A stretch of 37,724 nt of DNA. It comes from a virus. A program made the position numbers and the translations under genes. The DNA lies in the IMG/VR virus record IMGVR_UViG_3300045988_158116; one strand, given 5' to 3'. Below are positions 3,401 through 37,724 of this stretch, piece after piece. Position 1 is the first letter of the stretch. Every line of letters starts with the position of its first letter. The notes below the pieces were generated by a model. The model worked only from the letters and a program-made list of their open reading frames with translations. It was not told where the DNA came from and searched no databases.

Positions 3401-3601
3401 TGGAACGGTAATGCCGAGCAGGGTTGTGTGAGCAGAGCAACGTGGTGACTGCTGCATGTGTTGTGCCAAATTGTGTGGCTTGCGCCTGAGGTTTTATTGC
3501 TTGTATGGCGGGCTGCACGAAATAGTGAATATTAACATGTTTATTAAAAGGAGTAGTGGCATGGCGGTGGTGGTGTGCGTTTGTGATGACGCTTGCAAAT
3601 T

Positions 3602-3627
3602 GCGGTTCGAGTCCGCGACTCGGCACA
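3602..3627 (+). repeat. Left 26-bp direct repeat (tRNA T-arm plus acceptor-3'-strand-like)
   Basis: Identical to 5736-5761. Reads as T stem/loop GCGG-TTCGAGT-CCGC, then ACTCGGC plus A. Confidence 0.85.
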
Positions 3628-3637
3628 AAATGGTGAC

Positions 3638-4762
3638 ATGTATATGGAAAAGGAAACTGCGTTTAGGGACTATGCCAAACATTTAGCTAAAAATGGTGAT
3701 GGCTGCAATTATGCTACCATTGGTAAAAGGCTTTGTGTGGCGCAGAGGTATCTTGATGAGGTTGAGGGCTTGACGCTGAAAGATTATAGAAAATGGCGCA
3801 AGGAGAATGCTCAGAAAATAGTGTTTGACCATGCGAATGTGTATGACCTTTTAAGTCCGTTTCTACAGTTTGTGGGTATAAATAAGTGCGGTAAACGGTC
3901 GCGCGAGCCTAAGCCCCTTGCGAGCAAAAAGGAGGTGAGCGAGAGTTGTGAAAGAGAGGTAAATGCTTTTGCCTTATGGTTGCAAAACAACAATGACATG
4001 AGCACTCACACCATACGCAGTTATATCACGGCAATGCGCGAATATTTTGCTTACGCTGACAAGGTTAGCAATGAATTGGTGCGTGCTTACATGTGTACCC
4101 TTACGGCACAAGGACTGAAGCCTAATACGGTTAATTTGCGGTTATGTGCAATTAGGGCTTTTGCTAAGATGAAGCGCAAACAGCTTGATGTAAAACGCAT
4201 AAAAATACACCGTGTGTTAGACCTTGAAAATGTTCCGAACGAGACAGAGTTTAGAAAGCTTACCGAATGGTTAAAGCAGCAAGGCAAGATGCGGTTTTAT
4301 TTTGCAGTGTTGGCATTTGGTTTGACTGGTGCTCGTATTAGTGAGATGCTGCAAGTGACGTGGGAACAGATTGAGACAGGCGAGGCTGTGATGATAGGCA
4401 AAGGGCGTAAGCAGCGTAGGTTGTTCTTCCCGAAACAATTTCAGCGTGAGGCCGTGCAATATGCCAAGGCTAATAATTTGCACGGGTTGTTAATGACAAA
4501 CAAAACGGGAGAGCCCATTACGAGCCGTGGTTTTTGCTCTATGCTCAAGATTTATGGCGCAAAGTGTGGCATAGATAAGTGCAAGATGCACCCTCATGCT
4601 TTTAGGCATATGTTCGCCAAGATGTATTTAAAGAAGTCGAAAGGTGACATTGCTCAGTTAAGTGCCTTGTTGGGGCATTCAAAATTAGACACTACACATA
4701 TTTACATTCAAAAAAGCAAAGATGAACAACGCAAAGAATATGATAGAATCGTTACGTGGTGA
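3638..4762 (+). CDS. Second tyrosine recombinase (XerC/XerD-like integrase)
   Basis: Motifs are GARISEML (Arg I), HPHAFRHMFA (H-x-x-R) and LLGHSKLDTTHIYI (His/Tyr). Start chosen at the ATG at 3638 or 3644, just after the left repeat, rather than the ORF-track start at 3593. Confidence 0.85.
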   Translation: MYMEKETAFRDYAKHLAKNGDGCNYATIGKRLCVAQRYLDEVEGLTLKDYRKWRKENAQKIVFDHANVYDLLSPFLQFVGINKCGKRSREPKPLASKKEVSESCEREVNAFALWLQNNNDMSTHTIRSYITAMREYFAYADKVSNELVRAYMCTLTAQGLKPNTVNLRLCAIRAFAKMKRKQLDVKRIKIHRVLDLENVPNETEFRKLTEWLKQQGKMRFYFAVLAFGLTGARISEMLQVTWEQIETGEAVMIGKGRKQRRLFFPKQFQREAVQYAKANNLHGLLMTNKTGEPITSRGFCSMLKIYGAKCGIDKCKMHPHAFRHMFAKMYLKKSKGDIAQLSALLGHSKLDTTHIYIQKSKDEQRKEYDRIVTW

Positions 4763-5726
4763 GATAAAGACCCTTGACACCATGACGAACGAGTTAAAGG
4801 ATTGCACGCTCTATGACGAGACGGGGCACGTTGGTTTTGAACACTTGGAGGATACCATTGCGCTGATGAAAGAGTTCGCTCAAACAGCCATAAAATTCAA
4901 TAAAACAATAGAAAGTATGTTTGGCATTACTGACGATGATTCCCCTAAAAACGCTAAAGGCAAACGTGGTGGCTGTAAGCGTAAACCAGAAGATGTGTTG
5001 CGCGAGTTGACCCTTGATGATAAGGGCATAGTGCATTTGCCAAATGTGCAATTAGACGCTAAGACCTACGACAAGGTAAAACAGTATATAACCGAGGCTG
5101 GAGGAAATTGGGTAGGAGGTAAGACTCAAGGCTTTAGCTTTCCGTTTAACCCCGAACGTGTGTTCGCCATACTTAAAACTGGCAAGCGTTGCAATTTGGC
5201 ACAAGAGTTTCAATTCTTTGCCACTCCATCGACGATAGCCGACCGATTGGTAGCGTTAAACACTGCCATAAGCACCGCAGAGTGTGTGCTTGAGCCCTCG
5301 GCAGGTACAGGTGCATTGATTGAAGCTGTTTGGCGCAAATATCCAGATAAGAAGGTTGAATATTTTGAACTCATGCCTGAGAATAAGGAGAGGCTCGCAC
5401 AGATGCAAGGACCTATGGAGTTTCTTGGCGAGGACTTTCTGCAATGCGATGGAAACAGACGTTGGCAAGCTATAATAGCTAATCCACCCTTTAGTGGGAA
5501 CCAAGACGTTAAGCACGTGACGCGAATGTATGAGGCATTAGAGCGTGGTGGGTGCGTTACTGCCGTAATGAGTAATCATTGGACCTTTGCCGAGGAAAAG
5601 ATCTGTAAAGACTTTCGGCAGTTGCTTGAAGCCCAAGATGCACTCATTGAAAGTGTGCCAAGTGGTGCTTTCAGTAAGAGTGACACATCTATTAGTACAA
5701 CTATCGTACGGCTAATAAAGCCCTAA
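4722..5726 (+). CDS. Orphan N6-adenine DNA methyltransferase
   Basis: FATPSTIADRL, then motif I VLEPSAGTGAL, then motif IV IIANPPF. No adjacent restriction gene. Overlaps the recombinase by 41 nt; alternative starts at 4740 and 4782. Confidence 0.75.
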   Translation: MNNAKNMIESLRGEIKTLDTMTNELKDCTLYDETGHVGFEHLEDTIALMKEFAQTAIKFNKTIESMFGITDDDSPKNAKGKRGGCKRKPEDVLRELTLDDKGIVHLPNVQLDAKTYDKVKQYITEAGGNWVGGKTQGFSFPFNPERVFAILKTGKRCNLAQEFQFFATPSTIADRLVALNTAISTAECVLEPSAGTGALIEAVWRKYPDKKVEYFELMPENKERLAQMQGPMEFLGEDFLQCDGNRRWQAIIANPPFSGNQDVKHVTRMYEALERGGCVTAVMSNHWTFAEEKICKDFRQLLEAQDALIESVPSGAFSKSDTSISTTIVRLIKP

Positions 5727-13720: not shown

Positions 13721-15325
13721 ATGGAAGTATTTTTTAACCGCATGCAGCGCGAGGTGTGTGCCATCGACGCGCACACCAACGTGATAGTGGCAGGACGAGG
13801 CACAGGCAAGAGCGTGTTGCATGCTTGGATAAATCTGCGCAACTTTCAGCAGATGCCACGCAGTACCACCGCCTTTGTCACCCCCACCGCCATACGTGCC
13901 AAAACCAACACCTTACCATCGATGTTCCAACATTGGGAGGATTGGGGCTATCATCGGGGTGTGCATTGGGACATTGGACACCGTCCACCGCGAGCCCTTG
14001 GTTGGCCCGATCCCATTGTGGTGCCCGATAATTGGGAAAACGTCATCTCGTTCTACACGGGAGCCATTGGTCAGATAATCAGTCAAGACCGCGTGGGCAC
14101 AAGTAACTCAAAGAGTTTCGACTACATCGACATAGACGAAGCCAAGTTTGTAAACTTTGAGCGCCTTAAAGACGAAACCTTCCCTGCTAACCGCGGACAG
14201 CAGCGCGAGTTTGGTGACTTGCCCTTTCACCACGGCATGCTCGTTACAAGCGATATGCCTGTGACCAAAACAGGATCGTGGTTTATGCGCTATGAAAAAG
14301 ACCTCGACCCTGAACTCATTAGCACCATCGAAGCCCTAACAGCCGAAGAACTCTCGGTGAGTTGGCGCATTGCGCAAGGCGACACCACTCCCTACTTGCC
14401 TCGCAAACTTGCCGAGGTGCAACGTGTGCTCAGCACCTTGCGCAAGCATGCTACACTATTTAGGCGCTACTCCTCGCTCACCAACATCGAGGTGCTTGGC
14501 GAGGCATGGATCAAACAAATGCGTCGCGACTTGCCCCCAATGGTGTTTCGCACCAGCATTCTGTGTCAGTCGGTGAGCATACTGAAGGATGGCTTCTACT
14601 CGTCGATGCAACCGCGCAACAAGTATACAGCCACCGACCATAGCAAACTCGATGCCCTAGGCTACGACTTTAAAGCCATAGGCACAGCTGCCAACACCTG
14701 CAGGCTCGACTCCGACCTTATTGCCACTCACCCCCTCATCATAGCCTTCGACTTTAATGCCAACATCAACTGGCTTGTGTGCGGACAGGTAGACGAGGAC
14801 CGACGAAGGCTCAATGTGGTGAAGAGCTTCTACGTGAAGTACGACCGCAAGTTGCCCGAACTCGTGGCAGACTTTTGCCAATATTATGCACCCTTCCCAC
14901 TGCACGAAGTGATTTTTTATTACGATTCAACGGCTTTAGGGTCGAACTATGCGGTGAACGATCAAGACTTTCAGTGGGTGATTACGCATGAGTTGCAAAA
15001 GCACGGATGGCGTGTGCGCCCTGTGTATATAGGTGCCCCTATGCGCCACATGGAGAAGTACACACTCATTAACCGAGGCTTTGCAGGTCAAGCCCGATTG
15101 GTGCCCTACTTTAACGAGGCGCAGAACCAAGACCTATTGGTGTCGGTTCAAACCGCAGGCGTGTATAATGGCAAGAAGGATAAGCGAGGCGAGAAGTTGG
15201 CAGAGACCGAGGAGGACAAACTTGAGAGTCGTACGGATGGTAGCGATGCCTTCGATACCCTTTACATCGGTTGCGAGCGATTCCCGCAACAAGTTTTTGT
15301 GTTACGAGTGACAGGCGGTGGATAA
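13721..15325 (+). CDS. terL: Terminase large subunit
   Basis: 534 aa. Walker A VAGRGTGKS, Walker B-like DYIDIDEAKF, and a C-terminal nuclease-size domain. Sits at the head of the morphogenesis block. Confidence 0.85.
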   Translation: MEVFFNRMQREVCAIDAHTNVIVAGRGTGKSVLHAWINLRNFQQMPRSTTAFVTPTAIRAKTNTLPSMFQHWEDWGYHRGVHWDIGHRPPRALGWPDPIVVPDNWENVISFYTGAIGQIISQDRVGTSNSKSFDYIDIDEAKFVNFERLKDETFPANRGQQREFGDLPFHHGMLVTSDMPVTKTGSWFMRYEKDLDPELISTIEALTAEELSVSWRIAQGDTTPYLPRKLAEVQRVLSTLRKHATLFRRYSSLTNIEVLGEAWIKQMRRDLPPMVFRTSILCQSVSILKDGFYSSMQPRNKYTATDHSKLDALGYDFKAIGTAANTCRLDSDLIATHPLIIAFDFNANINWLVCGQVDEDRRRLNVVKSFYVKYDRKLPELVADFCQYYAPFPLHEVIFYYDSTALGSNYAVNDQDFQWVITHELQKHGWRVRPVYIGAPMRHMEKYTLINRGFAGQARLVPYFNEAQNQDLLVSVQTAGVYNGKKDKRGEKLAETEEDKLESRTDGSDAFDTLYIGCERFPQQVFVLRVTGGG

Positions 15326-15507
15326 CAGAGGTAGTGCATATTCCGCTAAAAAAAAGAGGGGGTGGCCCCCCCCGGGGGTGCAGGGCGTTGGTGGGTGGGA
15401 AAGGTGTGACACCGCACATTTTTAGCCTTCGGCTCCTGTCGAGATGCGTAAAAATGGGGAGAGTGAAGAAACTTAGGGTGGAAAAACTGAAGTAAGGTTT
15501 TGGGGGC

Positions 15508-15890: not shown

Positions 15891-16967
15891 ATGGCACGAA
15901 ATTATAACATAGACATTGACTCTTACATTGGGTATCCTATATCGAAGGGGTATGTGAAGAGCAAGCTTGAGCCGTTGAAGGGGAAGCCTTGCACGGTTCG
16001 CATCAACTCGTATGGAGGTGATGTGATGACGGCACTTGATATTCGCCAACAGTTTTTGGACCATGGGGATGTGACGGCTTACATAGTGGGCATGACTGCG
16101 AGTGCAGCCACGATCCTCGCCATGGGTGCTAAGAAGGTGGTGATGAGCCGTTATGCCCTGATGCTTGTACACCAGGCTTCGGGCTTTAGTGAGACTTGGG
16201 GGTATTACAACAAGGAGCAACTTGAAAGCAAGATTGCAGAACTTAGAAAGAACCAGGCGAAGCTTGACACGATTGACCGCGTGATAGCTTCGATTTATGC
16301 GGTGCGCAGTAAACGCGAAGCTAAGGAAATTGCTGAGTTGATGAGCGAAGAACGATGGATCACTGCAGAAGAGGCTTTGGAGTATGGGTTGATTGATGAG
16401 ATTGACCCCGACGAAGAAGAACAGCAACCCGAGGGCTTGAGTGCTTCGGCTCGCGAACATTTGGTGGCTTGTGGTTTTCCCTTGCCCGTTCGCGTTCGAC
16501 ACGAGGGTGTTGTACCCACACTCACTCCCGATGCTACTGCCAATGGGGTAGACACCGATTCGGCACTCAACAAGGTGGTAGGCTTTTTGCGCTCGCTGTT
16601 TGGTTCCATGCACACCGAAAGCACCGCCGAAAACGACACCGAAAACACAACAAACAATAAAAACGAAATGAACAAGAAGACAACGACGGTTGCGCTAACT
16701 TTGCTTTGCGCTACTCTTGGTTTGGAAAACTTAACAGCTGCTGAAGATGGCAGTGTTACCCTTAGTAAGGAACAACTAAATGCTGTGGAGGGTGCTCTTG
16801 CTGCATTTAAGAGTGAGAAGGAAGCAGCCGAAGCCAAGGTGAAAGAACTTGGTGCGCTCGATGGTGACACCACAGGCAAGGCAGGTCCTACAGCCGAAGC
16901 CGACGACAACACCCTTGCAGGTGCCGAGGCTATGAACTTTTACAACAAATTCAAGTCGATTATTTAA
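15891..16967 (+). CDS. ClpP-like prohead serine protease fused to a scaffold-like C-terminal region
   Basis: INSYGGDVMTALDI, GMTASAATILAMGA and MLVHQASG resemble S14/ClpP. The C-terminal half is acidic and coiled coil (EKEAAEAKVKEL). Confidence 0.8.
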   Translation: MARNYNIDIDSYIGYPISKGYVKSKLEPLKGKPCTVRINSYGGDVMTALDIRQQFLDHGDVTAYIVGMTASAATILAMGAKKVVMSRYALMLVHQASGFSETWGYYNKEQLESKIAELRKNQAKLDTIDRVIASIYAVRSKREAKEIAELMSEERWITAEEALEYGLIDEIDPDEEEQQPEGLSASAREHLVACGFPLPVRVRHEGVVPTLTPDATANGVDTDSALNKVVGFLRSLFGSMHTESTAENDTENTTNNKNEMNKKTTTVALTLLCATLGLENLTAAEDGSVTLSKEQLNAVEGALAAFKSEKEAAEAKVKELGALDGDTTGKAGPTAEADDNTLAGAEAMNFYNKFKSII

Positions 16968-28895: not shown

Positions 28896-31800
28896 TTGTA
28901 TATGAATAGCAATGACATTAAGACCGTGACGCTTGCGATAAACTCGGAGCAAGCGCAACGCAAACTTGACGAGATTAATAAAAGGCTTGAGGAGGCACGT
29001 AAGAAGAAGTTGGAGGCTTTTGATCGTGGCGACGGTAAGGCTTTGCAGGCTTATGCGAAGGAGATAAAGAGTTTGGAGGCTCAAAGCGCACGTTTGCAGA
29101 GCCGTGCATCGACGGTGACCCATGTTTTGAACAACTTGGATAAGGCGACTCCGCGTGAACTGAAGGCTACGATTAAGGAGATTAACCGAGAGTTGAACAG
29201 CGGAAGTGTGGAGCGTAACTCGGAACAATGGAAGGCGCTGACACGTGGACTGCAGGAGGCGAATGCTGAACTGAAGAAGATTAAAGATGAGCAGAAGGCT
29301 GCGGAGAAGAGCCTTGGAGAACCTAATAAAATTTCAGAATGGGGTACTAATTGGAGTGGCGTGACCGTTATTCTTGATAGTGCCTTGAACAAACTGAGTG
29401 CAGCCAAAGAGTTTATGGAGCAGTTCGTGAATGAGTATGCTGAAATGGCTGAGCACGAGTCGGGTGTGGCAAAGTATACGGGGCTTGCAAAGGAAGATGT
29501 GGACGCGCTGAATGAAAGTTTTAAGCGTTTGGACACTCGTACACCGCGTGAGAAGTTGAATGACCTTGCTGCGGATGCTGGACGCTTGGGTATTCAGAGC
29601 AAGGAGGCTGTGCTTGACTTTGTGGAAGCTGCAGACCAAATAAATGTGGCTCTTGGCGAGGACTTGGGCGAGGATGCAGTGAAGAACATTGGTAAGTTGG
29701 CGCAGATGTTTGGCACTGACAAGACGATGGGACTGAAGCAAGCTATGTTGTCGACTGCAAGTGTGATTAACGAGTTGGCGCAAAGTTCGAGCGCGAGTGA
29801 GGGGTACATTATGGAATTTACGAACCGCTTGGCAGGTGTGGGTAATCAGGCAGGAATGTCACAAGCACAGTTGATGGGTCTTGCCTCGGTGATGGACCAA
29901 AACCAAGTGGCGGTGGAGAAAGGCGCTACGGCATTGCAGAATGTGTTGACGGCACTGTTTAAGGACCCTGCAAAGATGGCAAAGGCTGCAGGGCTTGAGG
30001 TGGAGGCATTCACCAAGAAACTTTCGGTGGATGCGAATGGTGCATTGTTGGAATTTTTGCAAGCACTGAATAGTGCAGGAGGCATGGACCGACTGACGCC
30101 AATGCTCGCTGAGATGGGACTAAGCGGTGCTGGTGTGACGCAAACACTCTCGACGCTTGCAGGAAAGCTGGGCGATGTGAAGGTGGCACAGACTGAGGCT
30201 GCAAGAGCCTTTGAGGAGGGCACATCATGTACAAATGAAGCTGCGCAAGCAAACCATACGGCACAGGCAGAATTGGAGAAGGCACAGAAGAAGGTGAAGG
30301 ACCTGCGTGTGGAACTTGGGCAAAGATTGTATCCTGTGTTTACGGGTATGAATAATGCGGTGGTGGCTGCTGCGCCTGTATTGAGACGTCTTATTAGTTT
30401 GCTTGGTGTGGTGGTGAACTTTGTGGGCGAGAATGCGCGTGCGATAGTGACAGCAACGGTGGCTGTGACAACTTTTACGGCTGTGATGAAATTGCACTTG
30501 ACGTGGCAAGCCATTTGCAAAGCATGGACGACGGCATGGACTGTGGTGACGAACATTCAGACTGCAGCGACGGTGGCTTTGACGGCTGCTCAAACTGCCT
30601 TGAATGCTGCGATAAAAGCCAATGGTTTTGCTGCACTTGCTTCGCTCATTTTATCGGCAGTTGCTGCGCTTGTTACTTGGGCTTTTGTGAGCAATAGTGC
30701 GACGGAGGCTGAGGAGAAGAACACGAAGGCTAAGAAGGCTAATGCTTCGGCTACGGACGAACAACGCCGTAAGCAAGAATTGCTGAACGAAGTGAAGAAG
30801 GCGCAAGCTGACAGCACGAAGAATGAGCGTGCGCAGATTGAGATGTTGACGGGGATTATTCGTGATAACTCTGCGAGCATAGATGATAGACGTGCTGCGA
30901 TAGCTAAGTTGCAACAGATTGTGCCAGGGTATCATGCCTCGATTAGTTCGAGCGGTGTGTTGATTGAGAAGAACACAAAGGCGATTGATGACTATATTGC
31001 TCAACTTGACCGTTTGGCTTTGGCGCAAGCTGTGTTTGAGAAGATACAGGAGAATGCGAAAAAGCAGATGGACATTGACAGAGCCATTGATTCTTGGAAT
31101 AATGCTATTGCTAAGCGCGAAGGGGAGATGAAGAAGCCTGGGCATGAGAGTCGCACTGAGGGACCTGGTATTACCTTGACAATGCCTGGTGGCAAGAAGG
31201 TGACGAGCAAAGTTGAAACGAATTTTACGAGAATTGAAGATGAGCGCAAGCTAAATTATGATAAGAGTAGGCTAAACTTTTGGACGAATAAACGAAAGGA
31301 GGCGGAAAAAGACAAACAATGGTATATTGACTATTTGAAAAAGCAAGGTGCTTGGGGTGCATATACTAAGATAGTAGCAAATGGTGGTGTGACTTCAGCG
31401 TTGGGAGGTGTGCCGACGTTTAGTCCTACTGCAGGTGGTGGAACAGGTGGCAACCATGGTGGTGGAACAGGTGGCAGCCATGGTGAGACGGACTTGAAGA
31501 AGAAGGAGCGTGAGAAGTTGGAGAAAGAGGCAGAAAAGCAACGCTTGGTGGCAAAGACGCAGTATGATGCGGGACTTATTGACCATCGTGAATATTCAGC
31601 CCAAAAATTGGATATTGACGCGAAGCTTTATGCTGATGAACGCGACCTATACGACAAAAACTCTGAAGAATGGGTGAAATTTGAGCAAAAGCGACTTGAC
31701 GTGAAGAATGAAACACGCAAGGAGAACCATGCTTGGAGTATCCATGAGTTGGACGTGGAGGAGAAGGAAGAATTGGAGGTTGCTAAGAAGAATTATCTTA

Positions 31801-35221: not shown

Positions 35222-35250
35222 GCTCCAGGATTGATGCTTGGGGCTTTTTT
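35222..35250 (+). terminator. Rho-independent terminator ending the late operon (copy A of a duplicated terminator)
   Basis: GCTCCAGG-ATTGATG-CTTGGGGC plus T6. The same stems recur at 35992-36021. Confidence 0.65.
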
Positions 35251-35309
35251 GTTTAATAAGAAATTTATTATTATTTTCTTGTTTAATAAGAAATTTATTA
35301 TTACCTTTG
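35249..35309 (+). promoter_or_regulatory. Two 25-bp direct repeats, each a near-palindromic operator, overlapping a -7 box
   Basis: TTGTTTAATAAGAAATTTATTATTA at 35249-35273 and 35279-35303. The core TAATAAGAAATTTATTATTA is an 18/20 palindrome. TACCTTTG at 35302-35309. Confidence 0.6.
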
Positions 35310-35859: not shown

Positions 35860-35991
35860 CATGGTGTAAATGCCGTATTTGTAAAAAGATTTTGCTTAGT
35901 CATTCTTTCGTTAGACACTTTTTATCAGCTGGGCTGTAACGGCTGCCCGCATGTGAAAGTCGCCTATGGCTGATGGGCGCAAAAAAAGAAG

Positions 35992-36021
35992 GCTCCAGGC
36001 TTGACGGCTTGGGGCTTTTTT
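35992..36021 (+). terminator. Rho-independent terminator (copy B)
   Basis: GCTCCAGG-CTTGACGG-CTTGGGGC plus T6. Confidence 0.65.
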
Positions 36022-36085
36022 GTCTTTTGTCCTGTGGTGTTTTTCCTATTATTTTGTGATATTGTTTTATTTATTTTTTTACAAT

Positions 36086-36904
36086 ATGGCTCAATCATTA
36101 CAACAAAAAGGAAAGAAGAGAAAAGAGGTTTTGGAGGATTACGATGGATTTGTAGAGAAATTCAAGCCGAAGAAAACGACCGATGACTGCTATACACCAC
36201 AGGAGGTGTATGATGTAATTGTGGAATGGCTAACTGAGAAGGGGGCCATAGATGCGAACACTCCTATTGTGAGACCTTTTTGGCCTGGTGGAGATTATGA
36301 ACACGAGAAATATGATGAAGGGTGCGTTGTGGTGGATAATCCTCCCTTCTCGATATTGTCGAAGATTACGAAATTCTACAGTGAAAGGGAAATTGGGTTC
36401 TTCTTATTTGCTCCAACTTTGACGGCTGCTAGTAGTAATATTTGCGAAGCATGCACTATTATAGTAATTGGTGGAAGTATTAAATACGAGAATGGGGCTA
36501 AGGTGCCGACTGCGTTTATTACGAACCTGCCGTTTTGTGCCCAGTATGCGATGATGACAGCTCCTGAATTAGGGGAAAGAATTAAGTGTGTACAAAAATC
36601 GGGGGGGGGAAAAATTCCTTCTTATAAATATCCTGAGAATGTGATTTCTACTGCGATACTAAATGGGTTGGCTAATGTTGATTTAAAAATACGACGCAAA
36701 GAGGTCTTGCATATAAAAGCATTAGATGCGCAGCGTGTAAAGAAGAAAATGGTGTATGGTGGGGGATATTTAGTTTCGGACTATGCTGCTGCAAGGTTGA
36801 AGGCTGCAAGGTTGAAGGCTGCAAGGGAAAGTGTTGTTTGGAAACTTAGCGAGAGAGAACGGACTTTAATTTCGAGGTTGAATGATTTTGCTGATGAGGA
36901 GTAG
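36086..36904 (+). CDS. Phage Dam-like N6-adenine methyltransferase candidate with an internal G9 tract
   Basis: TDDCYTPQEVYDVIVEWL ... VVVDNPPFSILSKITKFY resembles the phage N6A-methyltransferase pattern (xYTP ... NPPY/F-S). Start chosen at MAQSLQQKG, not 36020. Confidence 0.5.
   Translation: MAQSLQQKGKKRKEVLEDYDGFVEKFKPKKTTDDCYTPQEVYDVIVEWLTEKGAIDANTPIVRPFWPGGDYEHEKYDEGCVVVDNPPFSILSKITKFYSEREIGFFLFAPTLTAASSNICEACTIIVIGGSIKYENGAKVPTAFITNLPFCAQYAMMTAPELGERIKCVQKSGGGKIPSYKYPENVISTAILNGLANVDLKIRRKEVLHIKALDAQRVKKKMVYGGGYLVSDYAAARLKAARLKAARESVVWKLSERERTLISRLNDFADEE
36601..36609 (+). repeat. Homopolymeric G9 tract inside the CDS
   Basis: TCGGGGGGGGGAAAAA encodes SGGGK in the current, in-frame state. 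Confidence 0.95.
36788..36826 (+). repeat. 15-bp tandem repeat x2.6 inside the CDS (AARLK repeats)
   Basis: GCTGCAAGGTTGAAG at 36788 and 36803, with a partial copy at 36818. Confidence 0.9.
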
Positions 36905-36930
36905 TTTTTTAAATAGTATAAATACTTGCA

Positions 36931-36956
36931 TACTACGAAAATTTGTAGTATCTTTG
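36931..36956 (+). promoter_or_regulatory. Inverted ACTAC/GTAGT pair overlapping -7 box TATCTTTG
   Basis: TACTAC (36931-36936) and GTAGTA (36945-36950). TATCTTTG at 36949-36956. Confidence 0.45.
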
Positions 36957-36981
36957 TAATATTTTAAATATCTAATAAGAT

Positions 36982-37137
36982 ATGGAACGAAAAACATTAA
37001 AAGTAACAGTTTCTGAAGAAGAGCACAAACTGTTAGAAGCAATTAGGAACTACAACAAGAGTTTTCCCGATGGTTATCCGCAACTTAGATGATATGCACA
37101 GGAGTTACTTGATAACATGCTTCGCCAACCTTATTAA
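36982..37137 (+). pseudogene. Ribbon-helix-helix-like small ORF interrupted by an in-frame TGA
   Basis: MERKTLKVTVSEEEHKLLEAIRNYNKSFPDGYPQLR-TGA-YAQELLDNMLRQPY. This gives a beta strand plus helix A before the stop (37090-37092), with helix B after it in the same frame. Confidence 0.4.
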
Positions 37138-37145
37138 AACAACAA

Positions 37146-37172
37146 GCCCCGCTCATCGCGGGTGGGGCTTTT
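37146..37172 (+). terminator. Hairpin plus T-run
   Basis: GCCCCGCTC...GCGGGTGGGGC, then TTTT. Confidence 0.5.
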
Positions 37173-37669: not shown

Positions 37670-37724
37670 GCAAGATTGGCTTTGGGAGCAGGGGGTCGTG
37701 GGTTCGAATCCCGTCGCCCCGACA
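37670..37724 (+). repeat. attR core: displaced partial tRNA 3' copy
   Basis: Identical to 1-55. The upstream sequence (AAAAAGTTAGATGTTGTT) is not tRNA-like, so the intact tRNA must be on the left side. Confidence 0.9.

Follow-up and report, generated by a model that had tools for sequence, protein, structure and literature searches.

A run of nine guanines inside a probable orphan methyltransferase gene was found to vary in length among otherwise identical copies of that gene. We consider it likely, with a probability of roughly two in three, that this run is a slipped-strand contingency tract that switches a probable N6-adenine methyltransferase of a human-gut temperate phage. The sequence analysed, referred to here as the window, is the whole 37,724-nucleotide stretch of IMG/VR virus record IMGVR_UViG_3300045988_158116. 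The gene (36086..36904, plus strand; ATG at 36086, stop codon at 36902-36904) encodes a protein of 272 amino acids, assigned as a probable orphan DNA (adenine) methyltransferase from its match to PHROG 21498, its homologues and its fold matches. The hypermutable homopolymer (36601..36614, plus strand) consists of G9 (36601-36609) followed by A5 (36610-36614), as read from the sequence, and the G run spans G6 to G10 across the clade. The tract codons, tcg ggg ggg gga aaa, encode S172-G-G-G-K176, and the G9 occupies codons 172-175.

We edited the tract of the window allele in silico and translated the resulting frames. As a result, G6, G9 and G12 gave full-length products of 271-273 amino acids, G7 and G10 gave products of 179/180 amino acids, and G8 and G11 gave products of 185/186 amino acids. 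The gene thus shows one hallmark of a contingency locus, namely an intragenic G/C run of at least seven, which is long enough to slip and in which a change of ±1 shifts the frame (G8, 185 amino acids; G10, 180 amino acids). An earlier, sequence-only reading of the window had described the tract and its SGGGK product exactly, and had predicted that one G more or less would truncate the protein about 100 codons early; the actual loss was 87-92 codons. In the AlphaFold model, the tract encodes a surface loop, and because the pLDDT of this loop falls below 50 at residues 174-177, one glycine extra or missing would be tolerable, so that the position can, as modelled, accommodate ±1 glycine.

No other G run longer than 6 occurs in the window. 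Dinucleotide shuffles predicted 0.21 G9/C9 runs per window by chance, with at least one such run in 19 of 100 shuffles, and a G/C run of at least nine appeared in 4% of trials when the synonymous codons of the window's ORFs were shuffled. In a window of such size, the G9 by itself is only mildly unusual, and the case therefore rests on the comparison among relatives. Elsewhere in the window, the intergenic stretch 15348-15385, between ORFs 13721-15325 and 15891-16967, is a G/C-rich near-palindrome composed of A8, GAGGGGGTGG, C8 and GGGGG, and holds the sole other G/C run of at least eight.

We then compared the tract among relatives, all of which are assembly consensus sequences. The homologue search yielded 11 full-length clusters of 89-100% identity, and two further clusters that end exactly at the tract. 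In the member lists of seven clusters, about 101 contigs encoded a full-length protein (267-329 amino acids; ON) and about 135 a truncated one (OFF). All 29 truncated members for which the sequence was read stop at the tract, and their tails, ending in SGG, SGGG, ..KNSFL or ..FLLINILIM directly before the stop, are those predicted for both wrong frames. In one lineage, 15 loci representing at least four data sets showed zero differences over the 783 coding nucleotides flanking the tract (495 + 288), and these otherwise identical loci carried G8T (seven), G9T (five), G10T (two) or G9A6 (one). The copies thus differ at the tract only. The sequence-only reading had suggested comparing tract lengths across relatives, and this comparison decisively ruled out an invariant tract.

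Three kinds of sampling that are independent of gene intactness, based on viral-contig similarity, an upstream DNA pattern and neighbour-gene anchoring, recovered mostly OFF alleles. The similarity search among viral contigs gave L001 (G9T) and L002 (G8T), both out of frame. In metagenomes, a 20-mer upstream of the tract detected two alleles: L047 has G9T and is out of frame, and L048 has G8T and is in frame, making it the ON allele of this sampling. Finally, among 20 related phage loci anchored on the two neighbouring DUF5053 genes, three contained the gene, and all three copies were out of frame (L056, G9T; L070, G9T; L071, G6T).

Full-length and tract-truncated members occurred together in every 90%-identity cluster with more than six listed members. 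That ON and OFF alleles recur from lineage to lineage implies that switching happened more than once, as opposed to one loss; a single pseudogenisation event was thus rejected, since the two kinds of allele are interspersed and the 95-codon frame 3' of the tract is still open in OFF alleles of several lineages. As a point against a maintained switch, the tract is interrupted in some lineages, for example as SGEKK or SGGEVK.

The main rival to switching is that recurrent frameshifts arise at a neutral hotspot in a decaying, dispensable cargo gene, where they would go unselected and serve no adaptive switching. We regard this explanation as unlikely. In its favour, OFF alleles outnumber ON alleles, and in one lineage the same N-terminus is found on about 50 OFF contigs (P0163 and P0164) versus about three ON contigs (P0008). 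Of the 20 loci sampled through the neighbouring genes, 17 lack the gene. The pN/pS ratios of 0.38 (N-terminal) and 0.55 (C-terminal) are moderately below 1, from small counts too noisy for telling purifying from relaxed selection. In addition, L001 (IMGVR_UViG_3300045988_120821) bears a second frameshift, a 1-nt deletion about 50 nt 3' of its G9T (at about 2075-2085); it is the sole clearly dead copy seen, in which the full protein is irrecoverable at any tract length. Against a neutral hotspot, however, the tract is kept across lineages of 89-93% identity and in several flank contexts, even though a single synonymous change would disrupt it, the ON and OFF alleles are interspersed, and OFF alleles keep their downstream frame intact. 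Another lineage is mostly ON (47 contigs of P0122 and P0135 versus about 15 of P0136, P0139 and P0148), and long G/C runs occur independently at three further sites of the family, where few runs have a length of 6.

These further runs emerged from a homopolymer survey of 142 distinct viral homologues, in which the run-length histogram was bimodal, with length 6 scarce (three C6, two G6) and lengths 7-9 frequent (14 C7, six C8, three G9). In a sister clade of viral contigs (L195-L220), a poly-C run lies at the CYTPPP motif, at about nt 62 of the gene; C7 is in frame (14 loci, 12 of them with complete ORFs of 251-291 amino acids), and C8, found in four loci (L214-L217), leaves a 31-residue stump. 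In two other members, G9 encodes the conserved FGGG motif (L033, 2149-2157; L035, 2110-2118), which is the YGGGY motif of the window protein. The loop that carries the window tract is encoded by C8A9 in L037 (1988-2004) and by G7 in L172 (about nt 492 of the gene). A search of viral_contigs for close relatives of L033, L035 and L037 found none. G/C runs have thus arisen independently at other sites in branches of the family, and their recurrence in a family that comprises more than 2000 clusters suggests that the strategy is general for such phages.

The gene carries another repeat. A perfect 15-nt tandem repeat, GCTGCAAGGTTGAAG, is present in 2.6 copies at 36788..36826 (plus strand) and encodes (AARLK)n, predicted to form a helix. 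The copy number ranges from 1 to about 7 in close relatives, giving proteins of 267, 272, 277, 282 and 287 amino acids with the frame kept, and distant homologues contain analogous repeats (AAELK, ERAAA and AERKAE). The repeat is thus a second hypervariable element, one that varies in frame. In Type I HsdS, a short central repeat sets the spacer length of the recognised sequence, and by analogy the (AARLK)n helix might act as a ruler. A family built for switching, with ON/OFF runs at at least four independent sites and a ruler that alters target specificity, is a speculative extension to which we give little credence. If true, common human-gut Prevotellaceae phages would carry a self-diversifying epigenetic module.

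We next asked what the protein is. The HMM of PHROG 21498, which is listed as 'unknown function', matched residues 11-266 of 272 with E=2.3e-87. The homologue search retrieved more than 8000 homologues, and the profile search 2174 50%-identity clusters at E<=1e-3, including 1035 at E<=1e-30. Pfam and NCBIfam gave no match for the 272-residue protein, nor did a sequence search of the PDB with the single sequence or with a profile; when 50 members were scanned singly, sub-threshold N6_Mtase and EcoRI_methylase hints were the only signals. The alignment of 50 homologues was more informative. The motif TTDDCYTP (residues 31-38; 36176..36199, plus strand) is invariant save for position 36, and DNPPFS (residues 84-89; 36335..36352, plus strand), the putative catalytic motif IV of amino-methyltransferases, is invariant, as is RPF..P. 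D84-N-P-P-F-S89 conforms to the pattern (D/N/S)PP(Y/F/W) of amino-methyltransferases (N6-adenine / N4-cytosine), and in the predicted structure DNPPFS directly follows the first strand of the core sheet. The AlphaFold model has a central sheet and a mean pLDDT of 79.8.

The part of the protein encoded 3' of the tract is likewise conserved. Invariant residues after the tract are Y180, P183, G225, G227 and E258 (50 members), two of which, G225 and G227, belong to the conserved glycine motif YGGGY (residues 224-228; 36755..36769, plus strand) that is missing from every truncated allele. No canonical FxGxG or clear SAM-binding motif I could be assigned in the protein, and YGGGY is only a candidate for motif I.

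Comparisons of the predicted fold point in the same direction as the motifs. Each of the best 20 PDB fold matches is a methyltransferase, and nearly every one acts on adenine N6; among them are KsgA/Dim1, E. coli Dam, T4 Dam and CamA. Their scores are weak, with rRNA adenine dimethylases at the top (E ~1e-2, TM ~0.3), and Dam and T4 Dam at E ~0.05 over ~90 columns. In BFVD, entries named DNA N-6-adenine-methyltransferase matched with E values of 1e-5 to 1e-3 (TM ~0.3). Some family members are fused to an N-terminal ParB_N domain; homologues of 39-47% identity from Porphyromonas, Bacteroides and Eggerthella phages carry the depositors' label methyltransferase; and homologues occur in phages of four phyla (those named being Bacteroidota, Actinomycetota and the archaeal Methanomassiliicoccales).

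We also tested membership of two known families. For Dam (PF05869), the window protein gave no HMM match even at E<=1, whereas T1 Dam as a positive control scored 1.7e-70, and BLASTP and hhalign detected no similarity between T1 Dam and the window protein. For N6_N4_Mtase (PF01555), there was neither HMM nor profile similarity, and no match to Bpm of phage BPP-1. Since hhalign and BLASTP against T1 Dam and Bpm found nothing, the protein was kept out of both families. It is thus, as judged from motifs and modelled fold, a probable orphan N6-adenine DNA methyltransferase of an uncharacterised family distinct from Pfam Dam. The xYTP ... DNPPFS pattern pointed out by the sequence-only reading is present, and its 'Dam-like' methyltransferase call is reasonable, though weaker than its wording suggested: at the sequence level the protein lies outside PF05869, and what supports the call is the invariant DNPPFS, weak fold matches, the ParB fusions and the depositors' labels.

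The tract could also switch a gene whose product is not a DNA methyltransferase, and which instead methylates RNA or protein or binds DNA without catalysis. This would be in keeping with the lack of a sequence-based family assignment, the 'unknown function' of PHROG 21498, the rRNA adenine dimethylases heading the PDB fold matches and the failure to find a clear motif I. We nevertheless consider it rather improbable, because DNPPFS is invariant, the BFVD matches are mostly phage DNA adenine methyltransferases, ParB_N fusions are typical for phage DNA methyltransferases, and the spread over phages of four phyla resembles that of orphan DNA methyltransferases.

The length variants might, alternatively, reflect homopolymers miscalled during short-read sequencing or assembly. 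Some contigs indeed have only ~3x coverage (L042, L044, L233 and L234), and the Illumina indel error is higher in long G runs. However, identical truncated proteins are encoded on 23-27 contigs each, the range of G6 to G10 goes beyond ±1, contigs as long as 45-88 kb or covered at 15-16x (L045 and L074) show the variants too, as do SPAdes, MEGAHIT and Logan assemblies of separate studies, and the rest of the gene is invariant in the 15 identical loci. An assembly artefact is thus very unlikely, and we rejected it on the recurrence across many contigs, the range of lengths and the number of assemblers. Least plausible of all, programmed slippage or frameshifting on G9A5 might give short and long products from any allele, as the slippery arrangement of G9 then A5 and the common occurrence of alleles in all three frames would allow, but no conserved stimulatory structure was found, the tract and its flanks vary by lineage (G8T, G9A5, G10T), and the C8 of the sister clade stops at codon 31, leaving a useless product.

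Returning to the slipped-strand contingency tract as our preferred reading, we propose that polymerase slippage gains or drops G's in the run. The full 272 residues would be made from 6, 9 or 12 G in the window allele, or from 8 G in the commoner G(n)-T alleles, and any other run length would bring translation to a stop at 174-186 residues. The truncated product would lack the conserved C-terminal third, including YGGGY and the repeat helix, and would probably be inactive. If the protein is, as seems most likely, a methyltransferase, ON/OFF switching would make populations of the phage or its lysogens a mix of methylating and non-methylating cells or virions; such switching is expected to be fast and reversible within a clone, its rate and reversibility being inferred from assembly consensus sequences. 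A possible benefit is bet-hedging, if some hosts restrict unmethylated DNA and others methylated DNA. Alternatively or additionally, a methylation-dependent shift in lysogen gene expression may be of advantage.

The genomic context is that of an optional cargo gene. The window encodes Bacteroidota-type integrases, primase, and Clp protease-like, tape-measure and repressor-like proteins, and the gene has the tail genes on one side and the attachment site on the other. Terminator-like hairpins on the plus strand upstream (35986..36021) and downstream (37144..37170) bracket it as a separate cargo unit. It is flanked on each side by a small DUF5053 gene, with no res or hsd gene of a Type I/III restriction-modification locus next to it. 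In the 17 related loci that lack the gene (of L054-L073, whose slot is homologous to window 35900-37150), the slot contains small ORFs, mostly of 72 or 51 amino acids, and the gene is therefore optional cargo, in a position that is a hotspot for cargo; L065 and L072 carry a HicA toxin gene and a 132-residue ORF near the slot. The DUF5053 neighbours are indexed in hundreds of public metagenome assembly blocks, including Hadza samples. Two tandem 30-nt A/T-rich units (35245-35303) directly follow the 652-residue ORF that comes after the tape-measure gene, and lie upstream of the small ORFs preceding the methyltransferase gene.

At the end of the window, 37680-37724 resembles the 3' part of a tRNA (T-arm and acceptor end) as a partial copy, and ARAGORN called a tRNA in neither the window nor L074. 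In the related contigs L055, L056 and L058, the sequence of the window's end runs straight into the integrase gene of the window's start, consistent with a circular or tandem arrangement in which the attachment site lies at this junction. Near that start, a second tyrosine recombinase gene (3593-4762) overlaps the beginning of a 334-residue ORF (4722-5726), which has matches among the DNA methyltransferase PHROGs of phages and a weak one to the Eco57I methylase domain. The second, cassette-borne methyltransferase that the sequence-only reading placed at 4722 thus exists as a methyltransferase-like ORF, and the phage has two candidate methyltransferases, encoded at 36086-36904 and 4722-5726. 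The epigenetic switch envisaged for the tract-bearing gene, and the two methylation states envisaged from this pair, are predictions.

A 20-mer scan of genome contigs gave just a chance Treponema match, and the host was thus inferred from L074, an integrated copy from a Hadza gut with recG, pdxJ and NAD kinase genes at its flanks. PdxJ of L074 is identical at 236 of 237 positions to a UniRef entry labelled Alloprevotella sp., of the family Prevotellaceae. The window therefore appears to derive from a temperate phage of gut Prevotellaceae, with an integrated relative in a genome labelled Alloprevotella sp.

The closest mechanistic precedents are the phasevarions, in which phase-variable Type III mod or Type I hsd genes have been described in Haemophilus, Neisseria, Helicobacter and Moraxella (PMC13076061, PMC11868660, PMC5149525). 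As in phasevarions, a repeat inside a methyltransferase ORF slips, the gene alternates between an in-frame and a truncated form, and methylated and unmethylated states end up mixed, which is here a prediction. Phasevarion genes, however, sit on chromosomes of Proteobacteria and Firmicutes and form part of Type III or Type I systems that include a restriction partner, whereas the present gene is a small orphan cargo gene of an uncharacterised family in a temperate Bacteroidales phage. In Bacteroidales, phase variation as covered by a recent review works via DNA inversion (PMC11868660).

Homopolymeric contingency loci are also known in phages. Hypermutable polyG tracts occur in Campylobacter Fletchervirus phages (Sorensen et al. 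2021, as cited in PMC12823448), and contingency loci in T2/T4 (bioRxiv 10.1101/2025.10.21.683753). Like the present tract, these are phage homopolymers with frameshifts that are reversible, or predicted to be so in the present case, and that are read as bet-hedging, but they affect receptor-binding and other genes of lytic phages, whereas the gene described here is a putative DNA-modification gene of a temperate phage. A nearer parallel is bpm (bbp30) of Bordetella phage BPP-1 (L223, NC_005357), which has a G8 at 29922-29929, just before its DPFAGSG motif, and this is the sole G/C run of at least eight in the 42-kb BPP-1 genome. The same preprint mentions the bpm polyG and says that it was not studied further (bioRxiv 10.1101/2025.10.21.683753). 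Both genes thus encode a temperate-phage adenine methyltransferase (a probable one in our case) with an internal polyG, but Bpm belongs to PF01555 (E=3e-33), and similarity between the two proteins is not detectable by hhalign or BLASTP. T1 Dam is likewise a small phage orphan enzyme, with a 'TP' element ~50 residues before (D/N)PP(Y/F); the spacing from TP to the catalytic motif is 51 residues in T1 Dam versus 47 in the window protein, a likeness of order judged by eye. Unlike T1 Dam, the family of the window protein has a C-terminal domain of its own, which comprises YGGGY and the pentapeptide-repeat helix.

With respect to lifestyle, the gene resembles the 'roving' prophage methyltransferases of the Bacteroides fragilis group (PMC10333322) and PamA of S. 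aureus (PMC13076061), which are swappable cargo of temperate phages expected to methylate the lysogen genome. The word 'homopolymer' is absent from the Bacteroides fragilis group paper (PMC10333322), the passages on PamA in the review contain no description of it as phase-variable (PMC13076061), and our literature search found no report of a phage methyltransferase switched by simple sequence repeats in Bacteroidales. What is known is thus the phasevarion mechanism and the polyG contingency loci of phages, and what is new is a probable slipped-strand switch in a methyltransferase-like phage cargo gene. Phase-variable methyltransferases have so far been found mainly in chromosomal restriction-modification systems of a few pathogens. 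If the present protein methylates DNA, two epigenetic states would be found among the lysogens and virions of a single phage, which, if true, could alter both the hosts that it can infect and the gene expression of its lysogens.
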